DNA from: Verrucomicrobiaceae bacterium
Lineage (GTDB): Bacteria > Verrucomicrobiota > Verrucomicrobiia > Verrucomicrobiales > Verrucomicrobiaceae
Direction of reading: 5' to 3'
Length of the DNA stretch: 64,000 bases
Assembly (NCBI GenBank): GCA_947466075.1
Contig: CANIBP010000007.1
Coordinates: 9,272-73,271, forward strand
The notes beneath the pieces were generated by a model. It was given only the letters and a program-made list of their open reading frames with translations. It had not been told where the DNA came from and did no database searches. The translations under genes and the position numbers were made by a program. Below are positions 11,989-27,305 of the stretch, piece after piece. Numbering within the stretch: position 1 is the first letter of the stretch; the number at the start of each line of letters is the position of its first letter.

Positions 11989-12711
11989 TCATTTCGCATT
12001 CAATCCGCGAAACTTCCCCGGAGCCATGCCTGCATAGCGGCTGAAGTGCCGCGTGAACGCACTCTGATCACACCAACCCGTTTCGATGGCGATATCCGCC
12101 AGCGATTGATCCGTCTCACGAAGCAAACGCGTCGCTTCATCAAGACGTAGCTTGTGCAGCAGTTGCAGCGGACTCATTTGAAAAAGGCGCTGCACACGCT
12201 GCTCAAACTGATACACACTCAGCCCGGCCTTCGTGGCGATGTCCACGATGCGCAGACTCTCGGTGAAATGTTTCTGCATGTGGCGCAAAGCCGATGAGAG
12301 TTCCGCGAATCCGCTCGCCTTGTCACTCGGCGCATTCAGATCACGCGAAATGCCGGCCACACCGATGATGCGGCCCTTGTCATCGCGCAGAGCGTGCTTC
12401 GTGGTCAAACACCAACCAGCTTTGCTGCCACTATAGATGTGCAACTCCAACTGATGCTCCACTGGCTTGCCCGTCTTGAGCACATGCTCATCCTGCCGGG
12501 CATAACTAGCCGCCAACGCTGCTGGAAACACTTCCTCTGGCCGCTTGCCGATCAGCTTGGTCTTATCCCCACCCGCACAGCGATTCGCCAGCGTCTGATT
12601 CACCCTCACATAGCGACCTACGGTGTCCTTGATGAAGAAAACCACATCCGGCAGCGCATCGAAGAGCACTTCCGTGACTGCATGCTGAGAGAAGGGTCCG
12701 GTTGAATCCAT
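11989..12711 (-). CDS. AraC-family transcriptional regulator with N-terminal PAS domain
   Basis: A PAS-like N-terminus (DVVFFIKDTVGRYVRVNQTL...IIGVAGISRDL) and a C-terminal HTH_AraC (GLSVYQFEQRVQRLF...GWCDQSAFTRHFSRYAGMAPGKFR). The start is placed at MDSTGPF (ATG 12709-12711). Divergent from the DapA-family gene. Confidence 0.85.
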   Translation of the reverse strand: MDSTGPFSQHAVTEVLFDALPDVVFFIKDTVGRYVRVNQTLANRCAGGDKTKLIGKRPEEVFPAALAASYARQDEHVLKTGKPVEHQLELHIYSGSKAGWCLTTKHALRDDKGRIIGVAGISRDLNAPSDKASGFAELSSALRHMQKHFTESLRIVDIATKAGLSVYQFEQRVQRLFQMSPLQLLHKLRLDEATRLLRETDQSLADIAIETGWCDQSAFTRHFSRYAGMAPGKFRGLNAK

Positions 12712-12787
12712 GTTTTGGCTGAAATGACAGTTTGACGGCCAAAAAGCAATCAAGACCATCAACGCCTTTCGTTTGATCTTCCAACTT

Positions 12788-13684
12788 ATGAACCCATCCA
12801 CATGGTCCGGCGTATTCCCGGCAGTCCTCACTCAATTGCACCAGGATCAGTCGCTTGACCTCGCGGCTTCGGCCAAGCACTGGCAGGCACAGATCGACGT
12901 TGGAGTCTCAGGCTTGATCGTGTGCGGTTCTCTTGGTGAAAATCAGTGTCTCCAGCCAGAGGAAAAACGTGCCGTGGTCAAACACGCCGTCGAAGTCGCC
13001 GCAGGTCGCGTGCCTGTGGTCAGTGGCGTGGCCGAAATGAACACACAAGCCGCCGTCCGCTACATGCAGGACTGCGAAAAGCTCGGCGCGTCCGGATTCA
13101 TGATCATGCCACCGATGGTTTACAAGACCGACCCGCGCGAGACGCAGCATTGGTTCCGCACGCTGGCGAAAGCGACGCCGCTCTCCTGGATGCTTTACAA
13201 CAACCCCGTCGGCTACCACACCGATGTCACGCCCGAGATGTTCGTCGAACTCGCCGACATCCCGAACCTTCACGCCATTAAAGAAAGCAGCTCCAACACG
13301 CGCCGCATCACCGAGCTGCGCAATCAAACCGGCGACCGTTACCGCATTTTCACCGGTGTGGACGATCTCTTCCTCGAGTCCGCCATCCTCGGCATCGACG
13401 GCTGGGTTTGCGGCAGCGGCATCGCTTTCCCAAAAGAAAACCAACAGCTCTGGGACCTCGCCAAAGCTGGTAAATGGGACGAATGCCGCACGCTGTATCG
13501 CTGGAGCCAGCCGCTCATGAAGCTCGATACGCACCTCCACTTCGTGCAATACATCAAGCTCCTCTGCCAGGAGACCGGCCTCGGCCAAGAATGGGTGCGC
13601 GAGCCACGCCTGCCACTCGCAGGCGCTGAGCGCGATCAGGTGCTCAAAATCATCCGCGATGCGCTAGCGAAGCGCCCAGCGTGA
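12788..13684 (+). CDS. DapA/NAL-family lyase (candidate pyrroline-4-hydroxy-2-carboxylate deaminase or 4-hydroxy-2-oxoglutarate aldolase)
   Basis: DHDPS-family pattern (GLIVCGSLGENQCL, YNNPVGYHTD, IKESS). The track start at 12773 is TTG; ATG 12788 (MNPSTW) is preferred. The substrate is inferred only from neighbours. Confidence 0.8.
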   Translation: MNPSTWSGVFPAVLTQLHQDQSLDLAASAKHWQAQIDVGVSGLIVCGSLGENQCLQPEEKRAVVKHAVEVAAGRVPVVSGVAEMNTQAAVRYMQDCEKLGASGFMIMPPMVYKTDPRETQHWFRTLAKATPLSWMLYNNPVGYHTDVTPEMFVELADIPNLHAIKESSSNTRRITELRNQTGDRYRIFTGVDDLFLESAILGIDGWVCGSGIAFPKENQQLWDLAKAGKWDECRTLYRWSQPLMKLDTHLHFVQYIKLLCQETGLGQEWVREPRLPLAGAERDQVLKIIRDALAKRPA

Positions 13685-13728: not shown

Positions 13729-14535
13729 ATGGTTCGCCCACGCAAAAAATACACCGTTCACGATCTCCGTAAGCTCAAAGGCAAACGCTGCCTCACGCAC
13801 ATCCATGTGAAGTCGCCGGAGGAGGCGATCGCAGCCGAAGCGGCAGGGATCGATCTCATGAGCTGCAGCTTCGATTCGCCGGAGGCCCACGCACGGCTGC
13901 CGCTGCTCGTCGCCGCTGCACCCACGGCTTTCCTTTCCGGCTCCACGCCGCATGGCATGGCCACACAGGAGGAGGCCATCCGCACCGGCTTCCGCGCTCT
14001 CGAAATGGGTGCCAGCAGCGTGTATTGCTCCGGTAGCCCGTTTTTGATCGAGGCGATGGCTCGCGAAGGCATCCCCGTCGTCGGCCACATTGGCATGGTG
14101 CCGCGTCATGTCACGTGGACTGGCTACCGCAGCCTCGGCAAGACCGTGGATGAAGCGAAGGCGATCTATCGCAAGATGAAGGACCTCGAAAACGCCGGTG
14201 CCTATGCCGCCGAGATCGAAATCGTGCCGCACAACCTCGCCTCGTGGCTTTGCAAGCAAACGAGCATGCTGCTCATGTCCCTCGGCTCCGGCACGGGCTG
14301 CGACACGCAGTTCCTTTTCTCCTGCGACATTCTCGGCGACTACGACGAGCGCATCCCGCGCCACGCCAAGTCCTACCGCAACTTCGCCGAAGAAAACCGC
14401 CGCCTGCAAAACGAGCGCATCGCCGCCTTCAGCGAATACGTCGCCGACGTGACCCAAGGCCGCTTCCCCGAGCGCAGCCACCTCACGGAAATGGACGCTG
14501 CTTTGCTCGATGAAGTGGTACGCTCCATTCCATGA
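13729..14535 (+). CDS. PanB-family (ketopantoate hydroxymethyltransferase-like, ICL/PEPM superfamily) enzyme
   Basis: Blocks are collinear with E. coli PanB as I remember it: VVGHIGMVPRH (VCGHLGLTPQS), EIEIVPHNLA (VLECVP), SLGSGTGCDTQFLF (GIGAGNVTDGQILV), and the C-terminal YVADVTQGRFPERSH (YMAEVESGVYPGEEH). Confidence 0.7.
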   Translation: MVRPRKKYTVHDLRKLKGKRCLTHIHVKSPEEAIAAEAAGIDLMSCSFDSPEAHARLPLLVAAAPTAFLSGSTPHGMATQEEAIRTGFRALEMGASSVYCSGSPFLIEAMAREGIPVVGHIGMVPRHVTWTGYRSLGKTVDEAKAIYRKMKDLENAGAYAAEIEIVPHNLASWLCKQTSMLLMSLGSGTGCDTQFLFSCDILGDYDERIPRHAKSYRNFAEENRRLQNERIAAFSEYVADVTQGRFPERSHLTEMDAALLDEVVRSIP

Positions 14536-14620: not shown

Positions 14621-15484
14621 ATGAAGCGCATCCCCATCATCGACTCCCACACCGGCGGCGAGCCCACTCGCACGATCTTGAGTGGCGTGACGGCCGATGA
14701 ACTCGAAACCTACCGCCGTCCCATCATTTGCGAGCCGCGCGGGCATGAGGTGATCGTCGGTGCGTTAATTGTAGAGCCGAAAGACGCGTCGTGTGCCGCT
14801 GGCGTGATCTTTTTCAACAACGTCGGCCTGCTTGGCATGTGCGGACATGGCATGATTGGCCTCATCGCGACGCTGAAGCATCTCGGACGCATCAGCACGG
14901 GCGAACATCGTGTCGAGACCCCCGTCGGCATTGTGACCGCCACGCTGCACGACGATAGCTGCGTGAGCATTCGCAGTGTGCTGTCCTATCGAAAAGAAAA
15001 AGCCGTGAAGGCAGGCAGCGTCACCGGTGATGTCGCGTGGAGTGGAAACTGGTTCTTCCTCGTCGCGGATCATGGACTCGATCTCACGCTGAAAAACATC
15101 CCGCAGCTCACGCAGGCCAGTTTAGAGATGCGCGAGGCCGTGCGAGCCGCTGGCTATCCGGAGGTGGATCACGTCGAGCTTTTCGCGCCGCCGCACGAGG
15201 CTGCGAATCACAGCCGCAACTTCGTCCTCTGCCCTGGTGGCGAATACGATCGCTCCCCCTGCGGCACCGGCACCAGCGCGAAGCTCGCGTGTCTTGCTGC
15301 CGATGGAAAACTCGCTCCCGGCGAGTTGTGGCAGCAGGAAAGCATCCTCGGCAGCGTGTTTGAAGGCAGTTACGAAAACTGCGACGGCGGCATCATTCCC
15401 ACCATCACGGGTCGGGCCTTCATCACGGCTGAATCCACGCTCATCCTTGATCCACAAGATCCTTTCCAATTTGGCATCGCATGA
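14621..15484 (+). CDS. proline-racemase-family enzyme, Cys/Cys type (probable 4-hydroxyproline 2-epimerase)
   Basis: [12 protein letters not shown]-terminus. Catalytic pair MCGHG and SPCGTGTSA, both Cys, which argues for an epimerase/racemase rather than a Cys/Thr dehydratase. Confidence 0.85.
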
Positions 15485-17655
15485 AAACACTGCTCCTGCT
15501 CATCTCTGCCACTGCGGCCATGTCTGCCGACTTCGACGCCGCGTTAAGCTTTCCGAAGCGCACCGAAAACACCGTCTTCCGCGACCGCGTAAAGGCGAAC
15601 TGGCTGCCAGATGGTAAGTCATTCTGGTATCGCGTCCAAACAGGGCCAAAGGCACATGAGTCTGTCCTCATCAACGCGGAAACCGGTAAGCGCCAGACTG
15701 CACCCGAGCTCAAAACACTAGGCATCACCTCTTCGGAAGCGAAGACATCAGCATTGAAGATCGAACTACGTCGCACGAAACGCACGGGCGAGTCCTCTGG
15801 ACTTAAGTTCATCAATCAACTCGGTGAGGATGTGGATCTATTCTGGATCAATGAGCAAGGCGAGCATGTCCGCTTTGGTGGCGTGCGCGCAGGCGCAGAG
15901 CGGGAGCAGCACACCTATGAAGGGCACGTCTGGCTCATCACCAGTCGCACCGGCGAGCACCTCGCCGTCGTCGAAGGCGAAGCGACGATCAAAACGCTCA
16001 TAATCGACGGCAAAGGCATTTCAAAGCCCAAGGAGGAACCGAAGAAGCGTGGCACGCCTGGCAAATCACCTGACGGCACTTGCGTCGTTACGAGCGAGGC
16101 GGATGCCGTCACCAAACGTCAAATCACGATCGTCGATTCATCACCCAAAGAAGGTCTCCAGCCGAAAACCAAAGTCATCGACTACACCAAGCCAGGCGAT
16201 CCTTTGCCGAAACCGCAGTTGGTCATCATACAATTGGATGGACGAAAAATTCGTGGGCCACGGGATTTGTATGAAAATCCCTTCAATGAGTCTGGTAAAA
16301 TCGACATCACTTGGTCGCCAGACAGCAGCGAGTTCTACTTCGACTACAACCAGCGCGGTCATCAGCTTTACCGCATCCTCGCCGCGAACGCGAAGACCGG
16401 AGCGGTGCGTCTGGTTGTTGAAGAGACATCGAAGACCTTCATCGACTACACCAAGAAAACTTGGCGTCACTGGCTGCACAGCACGGGTGAACTCATCTGG
16501 ATGAGCGAACGCGATGGCTGGTGCCATCTTTGGCTTTATGACACCAAAACAGGCAAGCCGAAGCATCAAATCACCAAGGGTGCATGGCCCGTGCGTGAGG
16601 TTTTGCACGTCAATGATGCCAAACGAGAAGTCTGGTTCATGGCGAGCGGTTTAAAGGCTGGAGAAGACCCGTATCATGAGCACCTCTGCCGCGTGAAATT
16701 CGATGGCAGCGGCTTCCAGCTGCTCACGGCCAGCGATGGCAATCACCGCATCGATTTCTCACCAAATCGCGACTTCTTCATCGACACTTGGTCGCGCGCC
16801 GATCATCCCCCGGTCAACGAACTGCGCCGCAGCAGCGACGGCAGTCTCGTGTCCGAACTGGAGAAAGCAGACGCCACCGCCCTAGTCGCCGCAGGTTGGA
16901 CAATGCCGGAGCGCTTCGTCGCAAAGGGGCGCGATGGAAAAACCGATATCCATGGTGTCATCATCAAGCCTACGAACTTCGATCCGTCGAAAAAATACCC
17001 TATCGTCGAAAACATTTACGCAGGACCGCATTCCGCCTTTGCACCCAAAGATTTTGGTCGGCTACTTGGTCATCACATGATCGCTGAATTGGGATTCATC
17101 GTGGTTCAAATGGACGGCATGGGCACCAATCATCGCGGCAAAGCCTTCCACGATGTGTGCTGGAAGAATCTCAAGGATGCGGGCTTTCCAGATCGCAAAC
17201 TGTGGATCAAAGAGGCCGCCAAAACTCGCCCATGGATGGATTTGAGCCGCGTCGGCATCTACGGCGGTAGTGCCGGCGGTCAGAATGCCATGCGTGCGCT
17301 GCTCGATCATCACGACTTCTACCAAGTCGCCGTTGCTGACTGCGGCTGTCACGACAACCGCATGGACAAAATCTGGTGGAACGAGCAGTGGATGGGCTGG
17401 CCGGTGGATGAAAGCTACAAACTCAGCTCGAACATGGAAGACGCCGCCAAACTCCAAGGCCATCTGCTTCTCATCGTTGGCGAACTCGACACCAACGTCG
17501 ATCCTGCCACCACGGCCCAAGTCGTTGGAGCGTTGCAGAAAGCCGGCAAGACCTTCGACTTCATGCCCATCGTCGGCACGGGCCACGGTGCGGCCGAGAC
17601 GCCTTATGGTTCAAAGCTAAGAGCTGAGTTTTTGGTGCGGCATTTGAAGCCGTAA
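15481..17655 (+). CDS. secreted S9-family prolyl peptidase (DPP IV / prolyl tripeptidyl peptidase-like) with an inserted VHL-beta-like module
   Basis: The ATGA overlaps the upstream stop. Signal peptide. DPPIV_N-like propeller. Catalytic YGGSAGG ... GELDTNVD ... GTGHG. Residues ~104-176 form the extra module (see findings). Confidence 0.9.
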
Positions 17656-17664
17656 CCAACAAAG

Positions 17665-18456
17665 TTACCGAGCCTTGATCTCGAACGCATCCAAATAAGG
17701 CAGCGTGATCTGAGGCGGCATGCCGCCGAAGGGCTGGTAGGCGGGGAGCTGGACAATGCTCATGCTGTGAGGCTGGCTGGCGATGAAGAACATGGCGTCG
17801 GCGCAGTCGGCGCAGGTGATCATGGCTTCCTTGTGCTTCGCGGATGGCTGCACGGGGCGCTTTTTGACGAGCGGAGTGTCGGCTTCACCGGGAGCGTATT
17901 CGGAGACGACGATGCCATGTGCGTTGAGTTGCATGCGGGCGGTGAAAAGCATTCCGTGAACAGCCCACTTGCTCGCTGTGTAAGGCACGCCAGCAAAGGA
18001 ATCGTAGCCATGACCGGCAGTGGAAGAAACGACGACGATCTTCCCGCCGCCGTTCGCCGCCATCGGCTTCGCGACGGCCTGAATCATATTCGCCACACCG
18101 ATGACATTGATCTCCATGACCTTCCGCCAGCTTTCCTCGCTGGCGATTCGCGACGGATCAGCATGCGCCATGAAGCGGTCAGGCGTGTTAATGCCTGCGG
18201 TGTGGATGAGTGCGTGCAGAGCGCCGTGCTTCAGCACCGTTTCCATCGCGGCGGCCACACTAGCGCTATCCGCCACATCGCAGACGACGGGGATGATGTT
18301 CTTGGAAAGCACGGCGCTTTCCTGGAGCGACTCCAGCGTGCGCCCGAACACAAAGGTCTTGGCACCGGCATCCGCGAAACGCTTCGCTGCTGCCTGCCCC
18401 ATTCCACCGCCACCGCCGGTGACGATCACGATTTTGTCTGTCCAATTTTGGTCCAT
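17665..18456 (-). CDS. short-chain dehydrogenase/reductase (SDR)
   Basis: TGGGGGMGQ Rossmann motif and a YTASKWA catalytic Y-x3-K. The start is placed at MDQNWTDKIVIV. Confidence 0.85.
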   Translation of the reverse strand: MDQNWTDKIVIVTGGGGGMGQAAAKRFADAGAKTFVFGRTLESLQESAVLSKNIIPVVCDVADSASVAAAMETVLKHGALHALIHTAGINTPDRFMAHADPSRIASEESWRKVMEINVIGVANMIQAVAKPMAANGGGKIVVVSSTAGHGYDSFAGVPYTASKWAVHGMLFTARMQLNAHGIVVSEYAPGEADTPLVKKRPVQPSAKHKEAMITCADCADAMFFIASQPHSMSIVQLPAYQPFGGMPPQITLPYLDAFEIKAR

Positions 18457-18575
18457 ACGCTGATGGTAGCGAGTGCTCTCAGGTCGTCCAGCGTGCGAGC
18501 TTGGCAAAAATCGCGTATCTCGCTGCCAAAGTGCTCAAGAAGGCGGGCGGCGAAGGCGATTATCATACATTACTC

Positions 18576-20795
18576 ATGAAACTGCCCGCTTTGCTCTTCA
18601 TCGCCTCATTGTTGGCAGCGTCGCTCGCTGCAGCTGATCCGGCGCTGCTGACGCTCGACCGACTTTTCACCGCGGAGGAGTTCAAGGAAGAAAAAGCCAC
18701 GGCCATCCGCTGGAGCAAGAAAAGCGCCGATTACTTCACGCTGGATGCGCCGAAGATGGGTAAGGATGGCAAGGACTTGGTCCGCAATGACACGGCGAGT
18801 GGCAAAAAGAGCGTGCTGGCCACCGCGCAGCAACTGACGACGCCAGGTGCCAAAAAGCCGCTGGCCGTGGACAGCTTCGAATTCAATGCGGATGAATCAC
18901 AGGTGCTGCTTTTCACCGACACCAAGAAAGTGTGGCGCAAGAACACACGAGGTGACTACTGGTTGCTGGATTTAGCCTCGAAGAAGCTCACAAAGCTCGG
19001 TGGTGATGCAGCGGCATCGTCTCTGATGTTTGCGAAGTTTTCACCCGATGGAAAACGCGTGGCCTATGTGAGGGAAAACAACTTGTATGTGCAAAATCTG
19101 GCCGATCTGAAAATCACGGCGCTGACATCGGATGGCGGCAGCACACTGATCAATGGAACTTCCGATTGGGTGAATGAAGAAGAGCTTTTCATTCGCGATG
19201 CCTTCCGCTGGAGCCCAGATGGGACGCGAATCTTGTTTTGGCAGTTCGACACAAAGGACGTAAAGAAATTCCACCTCGTGAACCAAATCGCTGGCAATTA
19301 CCAGCAACTCAAGTCCTTCCCATACCCCAAAGCGGGCGAGAAAAATTCGGCCACACGGCTGGGCATGGTGAGCGCGGCTGGTGGAGCCGTGACATGGCTG
19401 AAAATTCCCGGTGATCCGCGTGATCATTACCTGCCACATGCTGAATGGACACCTGATGGTCATGCGGTCGTGCTTCAGCAGATGAATCGCCTGCAAAAAA
19501 CGAATCGCGTGATGCAGGCCGATCCAGCAACGGGCGAAACGAAGCTGGTGCTCACCGAAACGGACAAGGCGTGGGTGGAGAACAAAAATGACTTCAAGTG
19601 GATCGGTGCAGACTTTCTCTGGCTCAGCGAGCGCAGCGGCTGGCGGCACGCGTATCGCGCTCAGCTCGATGGCAAACTCACGCCCATCACCCAGGGCGAG
19701 TTTGATGTGATCGACGTGGCGCACGTCGATGCCAAAGGCGGCTGGCTTTACTACCACGCCTCACCGGAGAATGCGACGCAGCGCTATCTTTATCGGGTGA
19801 GTCTTGAAGGCGGTGAGGCGCAGCGGATCACACCAGCCAATCAGGCTGGAACGCATGGCTATGAAGTTAGCGAGGATGGCCAATGGGCCGTGCATACGTT
19901 TTCAAATTTCACCACACCGCCAGTGGTCGAAATCGTGTCTCTGCCAGAGCATCACAATGCGAGTGTGCTTGTGAGTCATGCCAAACTGAAAGAGAAATTA
20001 GCACTACTGAAGAAGCCGAGGTGCGAATTCCTCCGTGTCGATATCGGCGGCGGTGTGAAGCTCGATGCATGGAGTGTCAGCGCGGCTGATTTGGCCACAT
20101 CCAAGAAGCATCCCCTGCTCATGTATGTGTATGGCGAGCCAGCAGGACAGACGGTGAAGGACGCATGGGGCGGCTCTAAGATGCTGTGGCATTGGATGCT
20201 CGCGCAGCAGGGCTACATCGTCGCCAGTGTGGACAATCGCGGCACGCCAGCGCCACGTGGACGTGACTGGCGGCGGTGTGTGTATCGACAGCTCGGTGTT
20301 TTGAGTTCACAAGAGCAAGCAGAGGCTGTGAAGGCACTGCTGAAGCGCTGGCCTCAGGCAGATCCTGCGCGTGTCGGCATCTGGGGCTGGAGCGGCGGCG
20401 GCAGTTCGAGTCTGGATGCCATTTTCCGCTACCCGGACATCTACCACACTGCGATCTCGGTGGCTCCGGTGACTGATCGCATGCTCTACGATTCCATTTA
20501 CGAAGAGCGCTACATGGGCCTGCCGAAAGAAAACGCCAAAGATTACAAGCAGGCATCATCCATCAACTACGCCGCTGCTTTGAAAGGGAACCTCCTCATC
20601 GTGCATGGCACCGGCGACGACAACGTGCACTACCAGGGCGTGGAGAAGCTCATCAACGAACTCATCGCGAAAAATAAAGCCTTCACCGTTATGCCCTACC
20701 CCAATCGCGACCACGCGATCAATCAGGGCAAAGGCACCACACGTCATCTCTACGGGCTGTTCACTGAATACCTGCAAACGCATCTCCATGAGTAA
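18576..20795 (+). CDS. secreted dipeptidyl peptidase IV (S9B)
   Basis: Signal peptide MKLPALLFIASLLAASLAAA. DPPIV_N propeller motifs (DWVNEEE). Catalytic GWSGGG, GTGDDNVH and RDHAI. Confidence 0.9.
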   Translation: MKLPALLFIASLLAASLAAADPALLTLDRLFTAEEFKEEKATAIRWSKKSADYFTLDAPKMGKDGKDLVRNDTASGKKSVLATAQQLTTPGAKKPLAVDSFEFNADESQVLLFTDTKKVWRKNTRGDYWLLDLASKKLTKLGGDAAASSLMFAKFSPDGKRVAYVRENNLYVQNLADLKITALTSDGGSTLINGTSDWVNEEELFIRDAFRWSPDGTRILFWQFDTKDVKKFHLVNQIAGNYQQLKSFPYPKAGEKNSATRLGMVSAAGGAVTWLKIPGDPRDHYLPHAEWTPDGHAVVLQQMNRLQKTNRVMQADPATGETKLVLTETDKAWVENKNDFKWIGADFLWLSERSGWRHAYRAQLDGKLTPITQGEFDVIDVAHVDAKGGWLYYHASPENATQRYLYRVSLEGGEAQRITPANQAGTHGYEVSEDGQWAVHTFSNFTTPPVVEIVSLPEHHNASVLVSHAKLKEKLALLKKPRCEFLRVDIGGGVKLDAWSVSAADLATSKKHPLLMYVYGEPAGQTVKDAWGGSKMLWHWMLAQQGYIVASVDNRGTPAPRGRDWRRCVYRQLGVLSSQEQAEAVKALLKRWPQADPARVGIWGWSGGGSSSLDAIFRYPDIYHTAISVAPVTDRMLYDSIYEERYMGLPKENAKDYKQASSINYAAALKGNLLIVHGTGDDNVHYQGVEKLINELIAKNKAFTVMPYPNRDHAINQGKGTTRHLYGLFTEYLQTHLHE

Positions 20796-22029
20796 ACAAA
20801 TCACCATCCTCGGCGCAGGTGTCATCGGCCTCAGCACGGCGCTTTATTGCGCCCGGCGCGGCATGCGGGCGACAATCATCGACCAAAAGCCGCGTCAGCG
20901 CGATGGCTGTTCGTTTGGCAATGCGGGCATGATCGTGCCGAGCCACTTCATCCCGCTCGCGGCTCCAGGCATGGTCAAACTAGGCCTCAAATGGATGTGG
21001 AATCCGGAATCGCCCTTCTACATCAAGCCGCGGCTCAATTTAGATTTGATGACCTGGGGCCTGCATTTCTGGAAAGCGGCTACCAAAGGCCGAGTCGATG
21101 CCGCAGCGCCTGTGTTGCGTGATTTGAGCCTGCTGAGCCGCCAATGTTTCGAGGAGATCGGGCTCGACTTCGGTCTCGTGAAGAAGGGACTGCTCATGCT
21201 GTGCAAAAAACAACAGACGCTCGATGAAGAAGCTCACATGGCGGCAATAGCGAACAAGCTCGGCATTCCCGCCGAAGTTCTCGACGCCAAGGCCACTGCG
21301 GCGCTCGATCCAGCAGTGACGATGGATGTGTGCGGTAGTGTCTTCTTTCCGAAAGACTGCCATCTAGCACCTGGACGCTTCATCGCCGCAGTGGAGCAGG
21401 AGTTGATGAAGTTCGGAGTCGAAATGCTGTGGGAGACTGAGGTGCGTGGCTTTGATGTCGAGAATGGAGCGTTGCGGGCAGTCAAGACGTCAAAAGGTCA
21501 AGTCGAGGGTCAAGAAGTGGTGCTGTGCGGTGGCGTGTGGTCGGCGGATTTGGCGAAGGAACTCGATTTGAAGCTGCCGATGCAGGCGGGCAAAGGCTAC
21601 AGCCTCACGCTCACGAATCCGAAGCAACTTCCCGAACTGTGCAGCATCTGCACGGAGGCGCGACTCGCCGTGACGCCGATGGATGGTGCGCTGCGAGTCG
21701 GCGGCACGATGGAGATGGCTGGAACCGATGAATCCATCACGCCACGCCGTGTGCGCGGCATCACACGAGCCTTTCCCGACTTCTTCCCCGCCTTCAATGA
21801 AAGCGATTTCGCCGATGTAAAACCTTGGAGCGGCTTGCGGCCCGTCTCACCCGACGGCATGCCCTACCTCGGCCGCACACAGCGCTGGAAGAACCTCACC
21901 ATCGCCACCGGCCACGCCATGATGGGCCTCAGCCTCGCTCCCGCGACAGGCAAAATTATCGCGGATGTGCTTTGTGGTGAGAAATCGCCCGTAGCACTCG
22001 ATTTGATGTCACCTGATCGCTTCTTATGA
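20788..22029 (+). CDS. FAD-dependent D-amino-acid dehydrogenase/oxidase-family enzyme (candidate D-hydroxyproline dehydrogenase)
   Basis: The start at MSKQITILGAGVIGLSTALYCARRG (GxGxxG) overlaps the DPP IV stop by 8 nt (ATGAGTAA). DAO-family C-terminal GHAMMGLSLAP. The substrate is inferred from context. Confidence 0.8.
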   Translation: MSKQITILGAGVIGLSTALYCARRGMRATIIDQKPRQRDGCSFGNAGMIVPSHFIPLAAPGMVKLGLKWMWNPESPFYIKPRLNLDLMTWGLHFWKAATKGRVDAAAPVLRDLSLLSRQCFEEIGLDFGLVKKGLLMLCKKQQTLDEEAHMAAIANKLGIPAEVLDAKATAALDPAVTMDVCGSVFFPKDCHLAPGRFIAAVEQELMKFGVEMLWETEVRGFDVENGALRAVKTSKGQVEGQEVVLCGGVWSADLAKELDLKLPMQAGKGYSLTLTNPKQLPELCSICTEARLAVTPMDGALRVGGTMEMAGTDESITPRRVRGITRAFPDFFPAFNESDFADVKPWSGLRPVSPDGMPYLGRTQRWKNLTIATGHAMMGLSLAPATGKIIADVLCGEKSPVALDLMSPDRFL

Positions 22030-23768
22030 AACAACTCATCCTTCTTTTGGCCGTTTCGTCGGCTGCACTCGCTTTGGATCGCCCGAAGTTGCAAATCATC
22101 AACGCGGCACCGAATGCGATCGAGGTGTATTGGGAAATGAACGATGGGCATCGTGTCTCGAATGGCACGATAGAACCCGGCAATAACAAGGTCATCGGCA
22201 CAACAATCGGGCACCGCTTTGTGATTGTAGATGGCAAGCGTGAGACCGATGTGGTGAGCCAGGTGCGAATTCAGGGTTTTCGCTATGATCCGGCGGCGAA
22301 GGATGGGGTGCCGGCGTTTTATACGCAGCGTGCAAGTGCGGGTGGGTTTCCCATTGTGGCCTCGGCAAAGGTGAGTCCGTATGCGGTGAAGGAAGCGGTG
22401 TATCTCGTCGATCTGATGTTGGCTAAGCGTCCAGACGTGCGAGAAGCGATGATAAAAAGCGGGGCGCGGTTGTGCATCCTCGCGCACAACGAGTTCACGA
22501 TGGACCAGCCGGAGTTTGCCAATCTGGAAACCGTGAAAGGCTATGAGGCGCTGACGCCACGTGAGTATTGGGATGCACGAGCGCGTGGGCTCGGTGGTAG
22601 CGAGGAAGATCCCTTCTGCTCCTGCGCGGAGGAGAACCTGCTGGCCTACGACGGCGATCCGTATGACACGGAGAACATCCTGATTCACGAGTTCGCCCAC
22701 AACATGCACCTGCGTGGCCTGACGAATGTCGATCCGACCTTCGACACGCGATTGAAGGCCGCTTTTGAAGCCGCGATGAAGGCGGGACTGTGGAAAGGTG
22801 CCTATGCATCGTCGAATCATCACGAATACTGGGCGGAGGGCATTCAGAGCTGGTTCGACAACAACCGCGAGAACGATGCGCAGCATAACCACGTCAACAC
22901 ACGTGACGAATTGATCGCCTACGATCCGAAACTGGCAGCGCTGTGTCGCGAGGTCTTTGGTGACACCGTTTTGAAATACACAAAGCCGCAGACGCGGCTC
23001 ACCGGACATCTCGCAGGCTATGATCCGGCAAAAGCACCGAAGTTTGTGTGGCCTGAGCGCCTCATGAAGGCTCGTGGATTGATCAAGGGCCAGCAGGTGA
23101 AGCGGTTTCAGGAGATGACTGGTGCGAAGTCGCATGACGAGCGTCTCATCGCGGGCTGGAAGGTGCAAGTAAGCACGAAGCTGATCGAGCTGGATGCCGG
23201 GGCGGTGGAAAAGGCGATGCAACTGCTGCGTGCGCAACTCGACGAGATCGTGCGCATCGTGCCGAAGGCTGCGGTGGCGGAATTGCAGAAGGTGCCGCTG
23301 TGGATCAACCCAGAGTATCCGAAGGTGCATCCGCGCGCCGAGTTTCATCCCGATGCAGGATGGCTGCAGAACAACGGGCGCGATCCCGTGATGGCGAAAG
23401 GCGTTGAGTTCACCAACGTGCGCATTTTTGAAGCCGAAACACGCCGCATGCCGAACTTCGCGCTGCATGAGCTGGCGCACGCGTATCACAACCGCACGGT
23501 GCGCATGAGCTTTGGCAATTTGGAGATCAAAGCGGCTTATCAGAAGGCCAAGGCCAGCGGCAAGTATGATCGCGTTGAGCGCAAGGACAGCGAAGGGCGC
23601 AGCAGCATGGATCGGGCGTATGCGATGACTACGCCGCAGGAATACTTCGCCGAATGCACGGAGGCCTACTTTAGCCGTAATGACTTCTTCCCCTTCACTC
23701 GAGACGAGCTGAAGCAGCATGACCCAGAGATGTTCACGTTGTTGGAGAAACTTTGGGGTGTGAATTAG
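22026..23768 (+). CDS. secreted protein: VHL-beta-like module + two tandem HExxH...E(Y)(F/W)AE gluzincin (lethal-factor-like) domains
   Basis: ATGA start/stop overlap with the upstream gene. Signal peptide LILLLAVSSAALA. HEFAH at 22686-22700 followed 42 aa later by EYWAEG. HELAH at 23466-23480 followed 54 aa later by EYFAEC. Confidence 0.75.
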   Translation: MKQLILLLAVSSAALALDRPKLQIINAAPNAIEVYWEMNDGHRVSNGTIEPGNNKVIGTTIGHRFVIVDGKRETDVVSQVRIQGFRYDPAAKDGVPAFYTQRASAGGFPIVASAKVSPYAVKEAVYLVDLMLAKRPDVREAMIKSGARLCILAHNEFTMDQPEFANLETVKGYEALTPREYWDARARGLGGSEEDPFCSCAEENLLAYDGDPYDTENILIHEFAHNMHLRGLTNVDPTFDTRLKAAFEAAMKAGLWKGAYASSNHHEYWAEGIQSWFDNNRENDAQHNHVNTRDELIAYDPKLAALCREVFGDTVLKYTKPQTRLTGHLAGYDPAKAPKFVWPERLMKARGLIKGQQVKRFQEMTGAKSHDERLIAGWKVQVSTKLIELDAGAVEKAMQLLRAQLDEIVRIVPKAAVAELQKVPLWINPEYPKVHPRAEFHPDAGWLQNNGRDPVMAKGVEFTNVRIFEAETRRMPNFALHELAHAYHNRTVRMSFGNLEIKAAYQKAKASGKYDRVERKDSEGRSSMDRAYAMTTPQEYFAECTEAYFSRNDFFPFTRDELKQHDPEMFTLLEKLWGVN

Positions 23769-25083: not shown

Positions 25084-25896
25084 TTATAGGTCATGCAAAT
25101 GACTCGCACGGGCAGCTGACGCCATCGCCATTGGTGCTGATGAGGAATTCAGCCGACGATATTCGCTCGGTGAGTAGCTCGTGACCGCCCGAAAGGCGCG
25201 TGTGAATGCGCTATGATCTGCAAATCCGCAATCGAGAGCGATCTGGGCAATCGAGGCATCGGTTTCGCGCAACAAGCGGCAGCCGACGGAGATGCGGGTC
25301 TTGGTGATTAATTGCATCGGACTGATACCGTGAATGCGCCTGATAATACGGGCAAAGCGCGCTGGGGGCATGCCAGCCTTTCGCGCAAGTGAGGAAGGGC
25401 TTACCGGATCGTCGTATGCGGTTTCGAGATAGCGTAGCACACGCGCAACTTCAGGCGAGACGTCCTCTCGGCTCACAGGGGCAACCAAGTCTTTGGAAAT
25501 ACCGATAAGGCCCGTCACTTGGCCGCGTGCATCGCGGATGGGCAACTTGCTGGTAAGGCCCCACACCGGCACGTTCGGCCTGCGCCAGAAAAGCTCCAGT
25601 CGCTCCACAATGGGCTGACCTGTGCGCAGCACCTGGGCATCCTGCTCCGTGGGGATGCGTCCGTAGTCTCCGGGGCAGACATCGCAGGGCCTTCTACCAA
25701 TCATTTGCGCCTTGTCTTTGAGACCGTGCCGCTCCACGAGAGATTGATTTACCAAGAGGTAACGTCCTGATGCATCCTTGATGAAAAAAGCCGTATCGTG
25801 CATCAGATCGGCAACCTGCTCGATGAGACGTGCGTCCATGAGCAGCGCTCCTTGCTTGGAAAGGAGACCTGAAAATACTGGAATGGCTTTTTTCAT
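25084..25896 (-). CDS. AraC-family transcriptional regulator with N-terminal PAS domain (paralog of 11989-12711)
   Basis: DTAFFIKDASGRYLLVNQSL...LIGISKDL is collinear with the first regulator. C-terminal HTH_AraC (GFADHSAFTRAFRAVTSYSPSEYR). Confidence 0.85.
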   Translation of the reverse strand: MKKAIPVFSGLLSKQGALLMDARLIEQVADLMHDTAFFIKDASGRYLLVNQSLVERHGLKDKAQMIGRRPCDVCPGDYGRIPTEQDAQVLRTGQPIVERLELFWRRPNVPVWGLTSKLPIRDARGQVTGLIGISKDLVAPVSREDVSPEVARVLRYLETAYDDPVSPSSLARKAGMPPARFARIIRRIHGISPMQLITKTRISVGCRLLRETDASIAQIALDCGFADHSAFTRAFRAVTSYSPSEYRRLNSSSAPMAMASAARASHLHDL

Positions 25897-26030
25897 AGGG
25901 TACGGCTGCCAGATAGTTGGCGGCTTACTAGGCAGCTTCCAGTCGTTTCCTCATTGTGCGGCTTTTATCGGGTTCGGCGGCCAGAAATGACAAGACATCG
26001 AGGCTGCCCCTGCCCGATGATGCATGCATC

Positions 26031-27305
26031 ATGTTTAGGCCATTTCACACTCTCCTCGCCACATATTTCATGAGCATTGCCGCCTTGTCTGCCGACGATA
26101 TCACTGAACTGCAAAGCAAGGCCGCTAGCGGCGATGCGAAGGCCCAACTCGAACTCGCCATTCGCTACCGCGATGGCAAAGGCGTCACGAAAGACGATGC
26201 ACGGGCCATGGAGTTGGCACACAAAGCAGCGGATGCAGGGAATGCGGACGCAATGGACTTCGTCGGTTTTGCTCATCTCCGTGGTGCCGTGGTGAAGCGC
26301 AATCCTGAGATCGCCATCGCCTATTTTAAAGAGGCGGCGGCTGAATCGGCGCAGGCGGCTTTTAACCTCGGTCAATGTTACTTCGGTGCGCAAGGAACCG
26401 CGCAGGATTGCCCGAAGGCGCTCGAATGGTGGAAGAAGGCCGCGAAGATGGGCAACGGTCGAGCCGCAGCGAATGCGGCGATGGCCTATCGCTCCGGCGA
26501 AGGCGTCGAGCCTGATGCAGCTCTAGCTCGCCAACTCGCGGAGCGAGCGGCGGAGTTGAACGATCCCTCGGGTCTCGTGTTTCTTGGTGAACTGCAGTTT
26601 CAAGCCGGTGAACTCGATGCTGCGAAAGCCAACTGGACCAAAGCCTCCAAACTTTCGCCCACCACTGCCACAGGGCATCCAGCGCAACCTTCTGGCAATG
26701 CTTCTGCTCAAGAAGCCGCCGATCTTTTGAAGCTCATCGATTACCGCAAGCGCAAAGGCGAGCCGAGCAACTTCGCCTTCGTGCAAATGCCGCACATTCA
26801 GCAGGGCTACAACAACTGCGGCTCCACCGCCTGTGCCATCTTCGCCCGCTTTCACGGCAGCAAGATTGGTGGCTGGGATTTCAAGAAACTATGCCCATCG
26901 CCACTCGGCACCGGCACCGACTGGGGCCATCTGCTTGATGCCTCGAAAAAGATCGGGCAGAACTGGAAGCTCATCACCTTCACGCCTGATGATGACGGCT
27001 TCGTCAAAGCCACCGACATGCTGAAGAGCGAACTCGATGCCGGAAGGCCCGTGGTCGTGGACTTCAAATACATCGGCCCGCAGTTCCCCAACGGCAGCGC
27101 CGGCCACACGCTCAATGTCTGCGGCTACATCGCCAAAGACGATCTCTACATCCTTTGCAATCCCGCCGTTGCCACTCCTGGCATCCAACTCATCACCGCC
27201 GACGATTTGAAGAACTTCTGGCGCTCGGATCACTACGGTGCGCTCTCCAAAGGCGTGCTCTCGCGGCCAGCATTTGTCATCGATAAACCTATTCCAACAC
27301 CATGA
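26031..27305 (+). CDS. Sel1-repeat protein fused to a C-terminal papain-like (C39-like) cysteine peptidase domain
   Basis: Signal-like N-terminus. At least 4 Sel1 repeats (AQLELAIRYRDGKGVTKDDARAMELAHKAADAGNADAM...). The C-terminus has QQGYNNCGSTAC (a Gln 6 residues before the Cys, as in papain-like enzymes) and SAGHTLNVCGY. Confidence 0.75.
   Translation: MFRPFHTLLATYFMSIAALSADDITELQSKAASGDAKAQLELAIRYRDGKGVTKDDARAMELAHKAADAGNADAMDFVGFAHLRGAVVKRNPEIAIAYFKEAAAESAQAAFNLGQCYFGAQGTAQDCPKALEWWKKAAKMGNGRAAANAAMAYRSGEGVEPDAALARQLAERAAELNDPSGLVFLGELQFQAGELDAAKANWTKASKLSPTTATGHPAQPSGNASAQEAADLLKLIDYRKRKGEPSNFAFVQMPHIQQGYNNCGSTACAIFARFHGSKIGGWDFKKLCPSPLGTGTDWGHLLDASKKIGQNWKLITFTPDDDGFVKATDMLKSELDAGRPVVVDFKYIGPQFPNGSAGHTLNVCGYIAKDDLYILCNPAVATPGIQLITADDLKNFWRSDHYGALSKGVLSRPAFVIDKPIPTP

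Follow-up and report, generated by a model that had tools for sequence, protein, structure and literature searches.

We analysed a stretch of 64,000 nucleotides from a Verrucomicrobiaceae bacterium (assembly GCA_947466075.1, contig CANIBP010000007.1, positions 9,272 to 73,271 of the forward strand), which is referred to as the window. The subject of the analysis is a gene whose product, here called the target, combines a module resembling the beta domain of the von Hippel-Lindau protein (pVHL) with two zinc metallopeptidase (zincin) domains, A and B, and which lies next to a set of genes that would fit a pathway for hydroxyproline (Hyp) catabolism. The features of the target gene and its neighbourhood are collected in Table 1.

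The open reading frame (ORF) of 580 amino acids that the initial annotation had placed at 22026–23768 on the plus strand was recovered, and the division of its product into three modules, VHL-beta, zincin A and zincin B, was confirmed. An AlphaFold2 (AF2) model of the whole protein reached a pLDDT of 94.3 and a pTM of 0.89. More than 4,600 homologues of the target were found; the best 120 are full length, share 68–92% identity with it and come from Prosthecobacter and Verrucomicrobiaceae. Database names of the homologues are 'zinc-dependent peptidase', 'anthrax toxin lethal factor-related metalloendopeptidase' and 'MtfA'. Inspected by eye, the N-terminus MKQLILLLAVSSAALA/LD resembles a Sec signal, with a hydrophobic core, an AxA site and no lipobox cysteine, and in the AF2 model this stretch is a lone helix with reduced pLDDT. 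Judging from its sequence the target is probably exported, to the periplasm or out of the cell. A 618-aa antisense ORF on the minus strand (21864–23720) covers nearly the whole gene; it was dismissed, as homology and family evidence all lie on the plus strand, and probably arose as an artefact of the high G+C content.

Table 1. The target gene, its parts and its neighbours (positions in the window; residue numbers are those of the target)
Feature	Position	Strand	Basis or remark
Target gene, VHL-beta + twin M34-like zincin protein	22026..23768	+	580 aa ORF
Probable Sec signal peptide, residues 1–16, cleavage after A-L-A	22026..22073	+	By eye
VHL-beta-like module, residues 18–92, seven beta strands	22077..22301	+	AF2 strands, Foldseek, family profile
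Zincin domain A, residues 93 to about 362–365, M34 (PPEP/lethal factor)-like fold	22302..23120	+	Foldseek
HEFAH (H221, E222, H225), zinc ligands and general base of A	22686..22700	+	Motif, conservation
Y260-x6-E267-YWAE271, catalytic Tyr and third zinc ligand of A	22803..22838	+	Motif, conservation
Zincin domain B, residues 366–580	23121..23765	+	Pfam ATLF, Peptidase_M90
HELAH (H481, E482, H485) of B	23466..23480	+	Motif, conservation
Y532-x6-E539-YFAE543 of B	23619..23654	+	Motif, conservation
ATGA start/stop overlap of DAO gene and target	22026..22029	+	Sequence
DAO-family FAD dehydrogenase, putative D-hydroxyproline dehydrogenase	20788..22029	+	Pfam DAO 223 bits
Second DPP-IV-type S9 peptidase, directly upstream of DAO gene	18576..20795	+	DPPIV_N 324 bits, Peptidase_S9 145 bits
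Short-chain dehydrogenase (SDR), TGGGGGMG Rossmann motif	17665-18507	-	Pfam adh_short in L001
Exported DPP-IV-like S9 peptidase with 'first' VHL-beta module	15481..17655	+	Pfam DPPIV_N, Peptidase_S9, VHL
4-Hydroxyproline epimerase (proline racemase family)	14621..15484	+	Pfam Pro_racemase 264 bits
PanB-like gene (ketopantoate hydroxymethyltransferase family)	13729-14535	+	Partial model match, 118 bits
DHDPS-family gene	12773..13684	+	Pfam DHDPS
PAS-AraC regulator, divergent from Hyp operon	11989..12831	-	At operon head in L020, L024, L028, L036, L042
Second PAS-AraC regulator	25084-25896	-	Downstream of target
Sel1-repeat + Peptidase_C39_2-like protein	25956-27305	+	Downstream of target

The N-terminal module had been described as a VHL-beta homologue on the strength of an ungapped alignment of residues 22–69 to pVHL 74–121. 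Recounting gave exactly the 12 identities in 48 positions claimed, with W88 aligned to W36, Y98 to N46, S111 to T59, H115 to H63 and W117 to F65; residues 69–131 of the pVHL sequence used agree with the PDB alignment. When residues 22–69 were shuffled 20,000 times and any pVHL register was allowed, none equalled the 12 identities and none the BLOSUM62 score of 46, and pVHL 74–121 is the best register for this segment. A hidden Markov model (HMM) built from 121 close orthologues matches modules in the family members P0221 (E 2.5e-14) and P0168 (E 2e-9), as well as in P0226 and P0186, and these four modules score 39.2, 40.9, 27.1 and 27.8 bits, respectively, with Pfam VHL, all above its cut-off. 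With the same HMM the neighbouring S9 peptidase is matched in its Pfam-positive VHL insert (E 1.6e-6), so that the 'first' and 'second' VHL modules of the operon are homologous. Searching a profile of 22 diverse modules against all PDB sequences returned pVHL essentially alone, at E 6e-8 to 2e-7.

The predicted structure leads to the same family. The AF2 model of the whole target shows seven strands between residues 21 and 87, and when it was used as a Foldseek query the top 50 matches were all pVHL, 49 of them at E ≤ 1e-3. Superposed on pVHL, the predicted beta domain deviates by 2.4 Å over 74 columns (8zv8_C) and by 3.2 Å over 77 columns (1vcb_C). Family profile, intermediates and predicted fold therefore uphold the homology. 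Pfam detected neither an alpha domain nor an elongin C-binding box nor a VHL C-terminal domain in the target, and zincin A follows directly after the module, which is a domain homologue of pVHL and not a pVHL orthologue.

In pVHL-HIF structures the Hyp pocket is formed by W88, Y98, S111, H115 and W117. T59 and H63 of the target are the equivalents of the residues that hold the hydroxyl group, S111 and H115, while W36 and F65, the latter a conservative change, take the places of the pocket-wall residues W88 and W117. N46 occurs in every one of the 121 orthologues, W36, H63 and F65 in 120 apiece and T59 in 118. Modules of the family come in two flavours: the N-terminal type, to which the target belongs, shows N in place of Y98 and F in place of W117, whereas modules located C-terminal to the zincin have Y or F and W at these positions and are nearer to pVHL. 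Taken together the sequence suggests that the module of the target may bind Hyp.

The rest of the protein had been read as two gluzincin domains of the lethal factor (M34/ATLF) kind, and Pfam, Foldseek and hhalign all bear this out. HEFAH at 221–225 is followed by EYWAE at 267–271 and HELAH at 481–485 by EYFAE at 539–543, with distances of 42 residues (H225 to E267) and 54 residues (H485 to E539) as first counted. The 121 orthologues show no exception at E222, H225, Y260, E267, H481, E482, H485, Y532 and E539 and a single one at H221 (kept in 120); the catalytic residues are likewise all invariant in 27 diverse A domains and 20 diverse B domains. As far as can be judged from the motifs, both domains are apparently active. 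PPEP-3 shows the same Y-x6-E spacing (Y190/E197; PMC12828418) as Y260/E267 and Y532/E539. Within the whole protein domain B matches Pfam ATLF with 38 bits, and by itself with 32.8 bits (cut-off 27.4); its Peptidase_M90 score is 36.6 bits (cut-off 26.2), the two matches overlapping in the same motif region. No Pfam model attains its cut-off for domain A, which alone gives 11.9 bits with ATLF, with both ATLF and M90 remaining below threshold. Domains A and B are homologous to each other (hhalign probability 98.4%, E 6.6e-15, 186 columns) and show reciprocal HMM matches inside the target; together with its ATLF match this relationship would tie domain B to the M34 kind.

Since Foldseek with the whole protein listed only pVHL, domain A was modelled separately, with a pLDDT of 95.4. 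Ranks 1–15 of its Foldseek list were chains of the Pro-Pro endopeptidases PPEP-1, PPEP-2 and PPEP-3, to which the predicted structure matched at E 7e-6 to 6e-4, TM 0.45–0.71 and probability 1.00; lethal factor appeared from rank 16, and Certhrax was also listed. The only M9 entry in this list was collagenase T (E 0.28, TM 0.31). The initial annotation had proposed profile searches and structure prediction as checks, and between them VHL-beta and zincin similarity both turned up.

A search that covered all of 1.84 billion cluster representatives exhaustively gave 5,310 relatives (50% clustering), and the family occurs in Verrucomicrobiota and Planctomycetota. Among the relatives A and B behave as independent modules, which occur singly, repeated and in many fusions. 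A Pirellula metagenome-assembled genome (MAG; L041, 9914–13882, plus strand) joins the N module, A and B to DPPIV_N and Peptidase_S9 in a single ORF of 1,322 aa, and a Schlesneria MAG (L059, 6524–10039, plus strand) joins the same three modules to DUF885 in a protein of 1,171 aa. A DUF885 gene also adjoins the Hyp epimerase gene in L003 and L004, so that DUF885 possibly belongs to the same peptide-degrading set. When 27 proteins with an A domain were scanned, six carried a Pfam VHL match, three a cyclophilin-type peptidyl-prolyl isomerase and three Sel1 repeats; in the cyclophilin carriers, by eye probably P0259, P0238 and P0270, a Pfam Pro_isomerase domain lies at the C-terminus (best E 2.6e-28). 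ThuA was seen on some other A-domain proteins. One to three VHL-like modules, either N- or C-terminal to the zincin, are present in 37 of 150 family representatives.

These architectures were not visible from a search of a 5.8-billion-protein index with the 85-aa N module and the 22-module profile, which returned only 6–7 short fragments, and the 150 representatives and local HMMs were therefore used. P0121 (Brevifollis gellanilyticus, 134 aa) and P0122–P0127 consist of a signal peptide, a VHL module and the first 20–40 residues of domain A; they probably reflect gene calls cut short by truncation or frameshift, not free-standing VHL modules. A literature search found no characterised member of the family and no bacterial VHL-domain peptidase, the sole relevant item being an in-silico note on a hypothetical protein of Litorilituus (PMC9002001).

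The neighbourhood of the target gene was then compared with pathways for Hyp. In the canonical bacterial pathway Hyp is handled by an epimerase, a D-Hyp dehydrogenase and pyrroline-4-hydroxy-2-carboxylate deaminase, and by analogy the gene set of the window appears to match it. The epimerase scores 368 bits with the NCBIfam model for 4-hydroxyproline epimerase, below its cut-off of 442. The DAO gene product, which falls below the cut-off of its NCBIfam D-amino-acid dehydrogenase subfamily, would be the D-Hyp dehydrogenase of the pathway, and the DHDPS-family gene probably encodes the deaminase. An alpha-ketoglutarate semialdehyde dehydrogenase was not among the genes seen in the operon. The PanB-like gene lies between the DHDPS-family gene and the epimerase, and this position is kept in L005 and L027.

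Two S9 peptidases of the dipeptidyl peptidase IV type (DPP-IV) are encoded in the same run. The first has a signal peptide and carries its VHL insert (about 15784–16011) ahead of the propeller; at 21.7 bits it just exceeds the Pfam cut-off of 21, and it reads H-T-Y-E-G-H-V-W, nearer to pVHL than the module of the target. An S9 peptidase with a VHL insert is kept in the Hyp operon of many Verrucomicrobiaceae. This enzyme represents a second, different class of peptidase with a VHL module. For the second S9 peptidase the mechanical ORF (18501–20795) probably begins too early, and M26 (nt 18576), at the head of a stretch resembling a signal peptide, is the probable first residue. In the DAO gene the mechanical ORF (20605–22029) again begins too early, and the most likely start is M62 (nt 20788), which closely precedes the GxGxxG motif (GAGVIG); with this start the gene overlaps the end of the S9 gene by 8 nt. 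Given these starts the second S9 gene, the DAO gene and the target gene form a tightly coupled run. The ATGA coupling of target and DAO gene noted in the initial annotation is present, and the 4-nt overlap is kept in L001 and L003 even with differing neighbourhoods.

To place this arrangement we used 80 loci from GTDB species genomes, 48 of which have a full-length orthologue and at least 1.5 kb of upstream sequence (30 at ≥ 66% identity and 18 below). In 17 of the 48 loci, all within the group of 30, the gene immediately upstream of the orthologue is DAO, and Hyp genes occur within 10 kb in 22 of these 30 compared with only one of the 18 more distant loci. The layout of a divergent AraC gene followed by DHDPS, epimerase, S9 with VHL insert, DAO and target recurs in the loci named with that regulator in Table 1, of which L028 is Prosthecobacter fluviatilis. 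In the window the two S9 genes flank the SDR gene, which in most related loci is the immediate upstream neighbour of the DAO gene, in divergent orientation; the divergent SDR gene with the DAO-target pair can thus be regarded as the conserved core. In L006 the order differs from the window and runs S9 with VHL insert, second S9, SDR, DAO. The second AraC gene and the Sel1/C39_2 gene form a pair just downstream of or divergent from the target in L003, L006, L008–L010 and L028, and in L027 and L029–L033 the AraC gene is present without the Sel1/C39_2 gene.

Several known systems share single traits with the target. The closest are PPEP-1 (Zmp1/CD2830), PPEP-2 and PPEP-3 (MEROPS M34, EC 3.4.24.89), enzymes that cleave between two prolines and have an S-loop and a diverting loop as specificity elements, which provide the best folds for domain A and share the HExxH helix and the tyrosine seven positions before the glutamate ligand; they are also secreted, with a biology around proline-rich substrates as proposed for the target. 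Unlike the target with its twin zincins, a PPEP has just one catalytic domain, and it lacks a VHL module; identity is only 16–20%, and domain A stays under the ATLF cut-off. According to PMC8610288, PPEP homologues are described from Firmicutes only, whereas the family of the target belongs to Verrucomicrobiota and Planctomycetota. Anthrax lethal factor (M34, Pfam ATLF) has two copies of one zincin fold per chain and the HExxH...Y-x6-E-x-x-A-E signature. Of these copies the N-terminal one is catalytically degenerate and serves to bind protective antigen; in the target both copies keep all catalytic residues, and the context is one of catabolism and not of toxins.

MtfA (Peptidase_M90) is linked to the target by the M90 match of domain B and by a weak alignment of the motif region to PDB entries 3dl1 and 3khi. 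MtfA itself is an aminopeptidase of the cytoplasm with one domain and with Mlc as its binding partner, whereas the target has a signal-like N-terminus, two zincin domains and a VHL module. With the beta domain of pVHL (PF01847) the module shares the seven-stranded sandwich, profile homology and the equivalents of W88, S111 (as Thr) and H115; unlike pVHL it lacks the alpha domain and elongin-binding box, is bacterial, predicted to be exported and fused to a peptidase, and has N for Y98, F for W117 and G for H110. The clostridial M9 collagenases ColG and ColH likewise combine a gluzincin unit with accessory domains that bind a Pro/Hyp-rich polymer, but both the zincin family and the accessory domains (PKD, CBD) are unrelated to those of the target.

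From these data we propose, with moderate confidence, that the target is an exported enzyme which docks on Hyp- or Pro-rich proteins through its VHL-beta module, cuts them with its twin M34-type domains and thereby feeds the Hyp operon. The module would hold the enzyme on Hyp- or Pro-rich peptide segments, and the two zinc endopeptidase domains would cut such protease-resistant segments into oligopeptides. The co-encoded DPP-IV-type S9 peptidases, one with its own VHL-beta module, would then trim X-Pro and X-Hyp units, and the Hyp set free would be catabolised by the epimerase, the D-Hyp dehydrogenase (DAO) and the DHDPS-family enzyme. Peptides containing Pro or Hyp are suggested as the substrate class because VHL, DPP-IV and cyclophilin domains are among the fusion partners and genes for Hyp catabolism lie nearby. 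A more specific version, in which VHL-beta is a genuine bacterial Hyp reader that directs the twin PPEP-like endopeptidases and the DPP-IV-like peptidase of the operon to Hyp-rich proteins, is put forward only tentatively. In the initial annotation the target had been called a candidate collagen-peptide-specific metallopeptidase. The part concerning Pro/Hyp peptides is strengthened by the PPEP-like fold, the DPP-IV and cyclophilin fusions, the Hyp operon and the recurrent pairing of VHL and zincin domains, while the specificity for collagen stays a candidate. Collagen or gelatin is a possible substrate; Hyp-rich glycoproteins of algae or plants are no less plausible, since these are freshwater Verrucomicrobia and the neighbouring genes include sulfatases and carbohydrate-active enzymes.

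A number of results weigh against the docking enzyme as proposed. The module of the target itself scores 12.8–13.2 bits with Pfam VHL (PF01847), below the cut-off of 21 (E ~0.1), and a profile of the orthologues only gives 3 bits against pVHL, so that the VHL homology rests on the intermediates and the predicted fold. The replacement of Y98, W117 and H110 by N, F and G means that the ligand may differ from that of pVHL, and because the equivalents of Y98 and W117 differ, binding of Hyp is worded here as a suggestion. The likeness of domain A to the PPEPs is moderate (root-mean-square deviation 4.6–5.8 Å at the identity given above), and PDB searches with the whole protein, the domain A profile and the domain B profile found no significant solved zincin; lethal factor, a SusCD-associated zinc metallohydrolase and MtfA appeared in the motif register at E 0.5–1.2 in the profile searches, which is consistent with the assignment and nothing further. 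Only one clade shows the linkage to Hyp genes, and no prolidase-type step that would free Hyp from dipeptides was identified in the operon.

Some of these results would also be expected if the target were a general exported zinc peptidase, its N-terminal sandwich a structural element or a binder of something other than Hyp (unhydroxylated Pro-rich peptides, glycans or protein) and the operon a device for general peptide scavenging. The altered pocket residues, the score of the module below the Pfam cut-off, the distant orthologues without nearby Hyp genes and the sulfatase, TonB receptor and carbohydrate-active genes that adjoin in some loci are all in line with it. It is nevertheless rather unlikely in our view, as hardly any orthologue departs from T59 and H63, the hydroxyl-binding equivalents, or from W36, the DPP-IV-like peptidase of this Hyp operon has a VHL module of its own, the pairing of VHL and zincin recurs in both domain orders and the coupling to the DAO gene is conserved.

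We rate as improbable a role of one or both zincins as MtfA/M90-type aminopeptidases or X-Hyp dipeptidases that finish the products of the S9 enzymes and supply free Hyp. Such a role would agree with the Peptidase_M90 score of domain B above the Pfam cut-off, the weak M90 matches of 25 of the 27 A domains, the lack of an obvious prolidase in the operon and the tight coupling of the gene to the first committed catabolic dehydrogenase. However, domain A comes closest in predicted structure to endopeptidases (PPEPs and lethal factor), and the protein appears to be exported while Hyp catabolism is cytoplasmic. The beta domain of pVHL binds an extended peptide, a mode of binding that suits substrates of polymer or oligopeptide size. 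That the HExxH domains are alpha-ketoglutarate/HExxH-type peptide hydroxylases or other non-proteolytic HExxH enzymes is highly improbable and the hydroxylase was rejected: the weak NCBIfam match of domain A to TIGR04267 (20.8 bits, E 3e-4) is far below the cut-off of 40 and covers the motif region only, Pfam gives ATLF and M90, the M34-like fold and the Tyr/Glu signature contradict it, and the target has a signal-like N-terminus whereas those hydroxylases are cytoplasmic enzymes of ribosomally synthesised and post-translationally modified peptides.

In summary, the parts of the target are of known kinds, M34/M90 zincins and a VHL beta domain, and what is new is their combination: twin intact catalytic domains with a VHL-beta module, linked to a Hyp-catabolic operon in bacteria of the Planctomycetes-Verrucomicrobia-Chlamydiae (PVC) group. 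The very large family, with its 5,310 representatives and no characterised member, is probably specialised for Pro/Hyp-rich substrates that ordinary proteases cut poorly, and if the proposal is true it would be a large family of Pro/Hyp-specific metallopeptidases outside the Firmicutes. Possible uses include the processing of gelatin and collagen, site-specific proteases in the style of the PPEPs and new Hyp-binding scaffolds. The family may also bear on the turnover of carbon and nitrogen from collagen and from the cell-wall glycoproteins of algae and plants. The VHL beta fold is known almost only as the animal receptor of hydroxylated HIF and as a handle for proteolysis-targeting chimeras (PROTACs). 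If the proposal holds, recognition of Hyp by the VHL fold would extend beyond oxygen sensing through HIF in animals and be a widespread device by which catabolic peptidases of PVC bacteria are targeted to their substrates; such a bacterial catabolic role would make it possible to test ideas on how the recognition of Hyp arose in evolution or was passed on by transfer.

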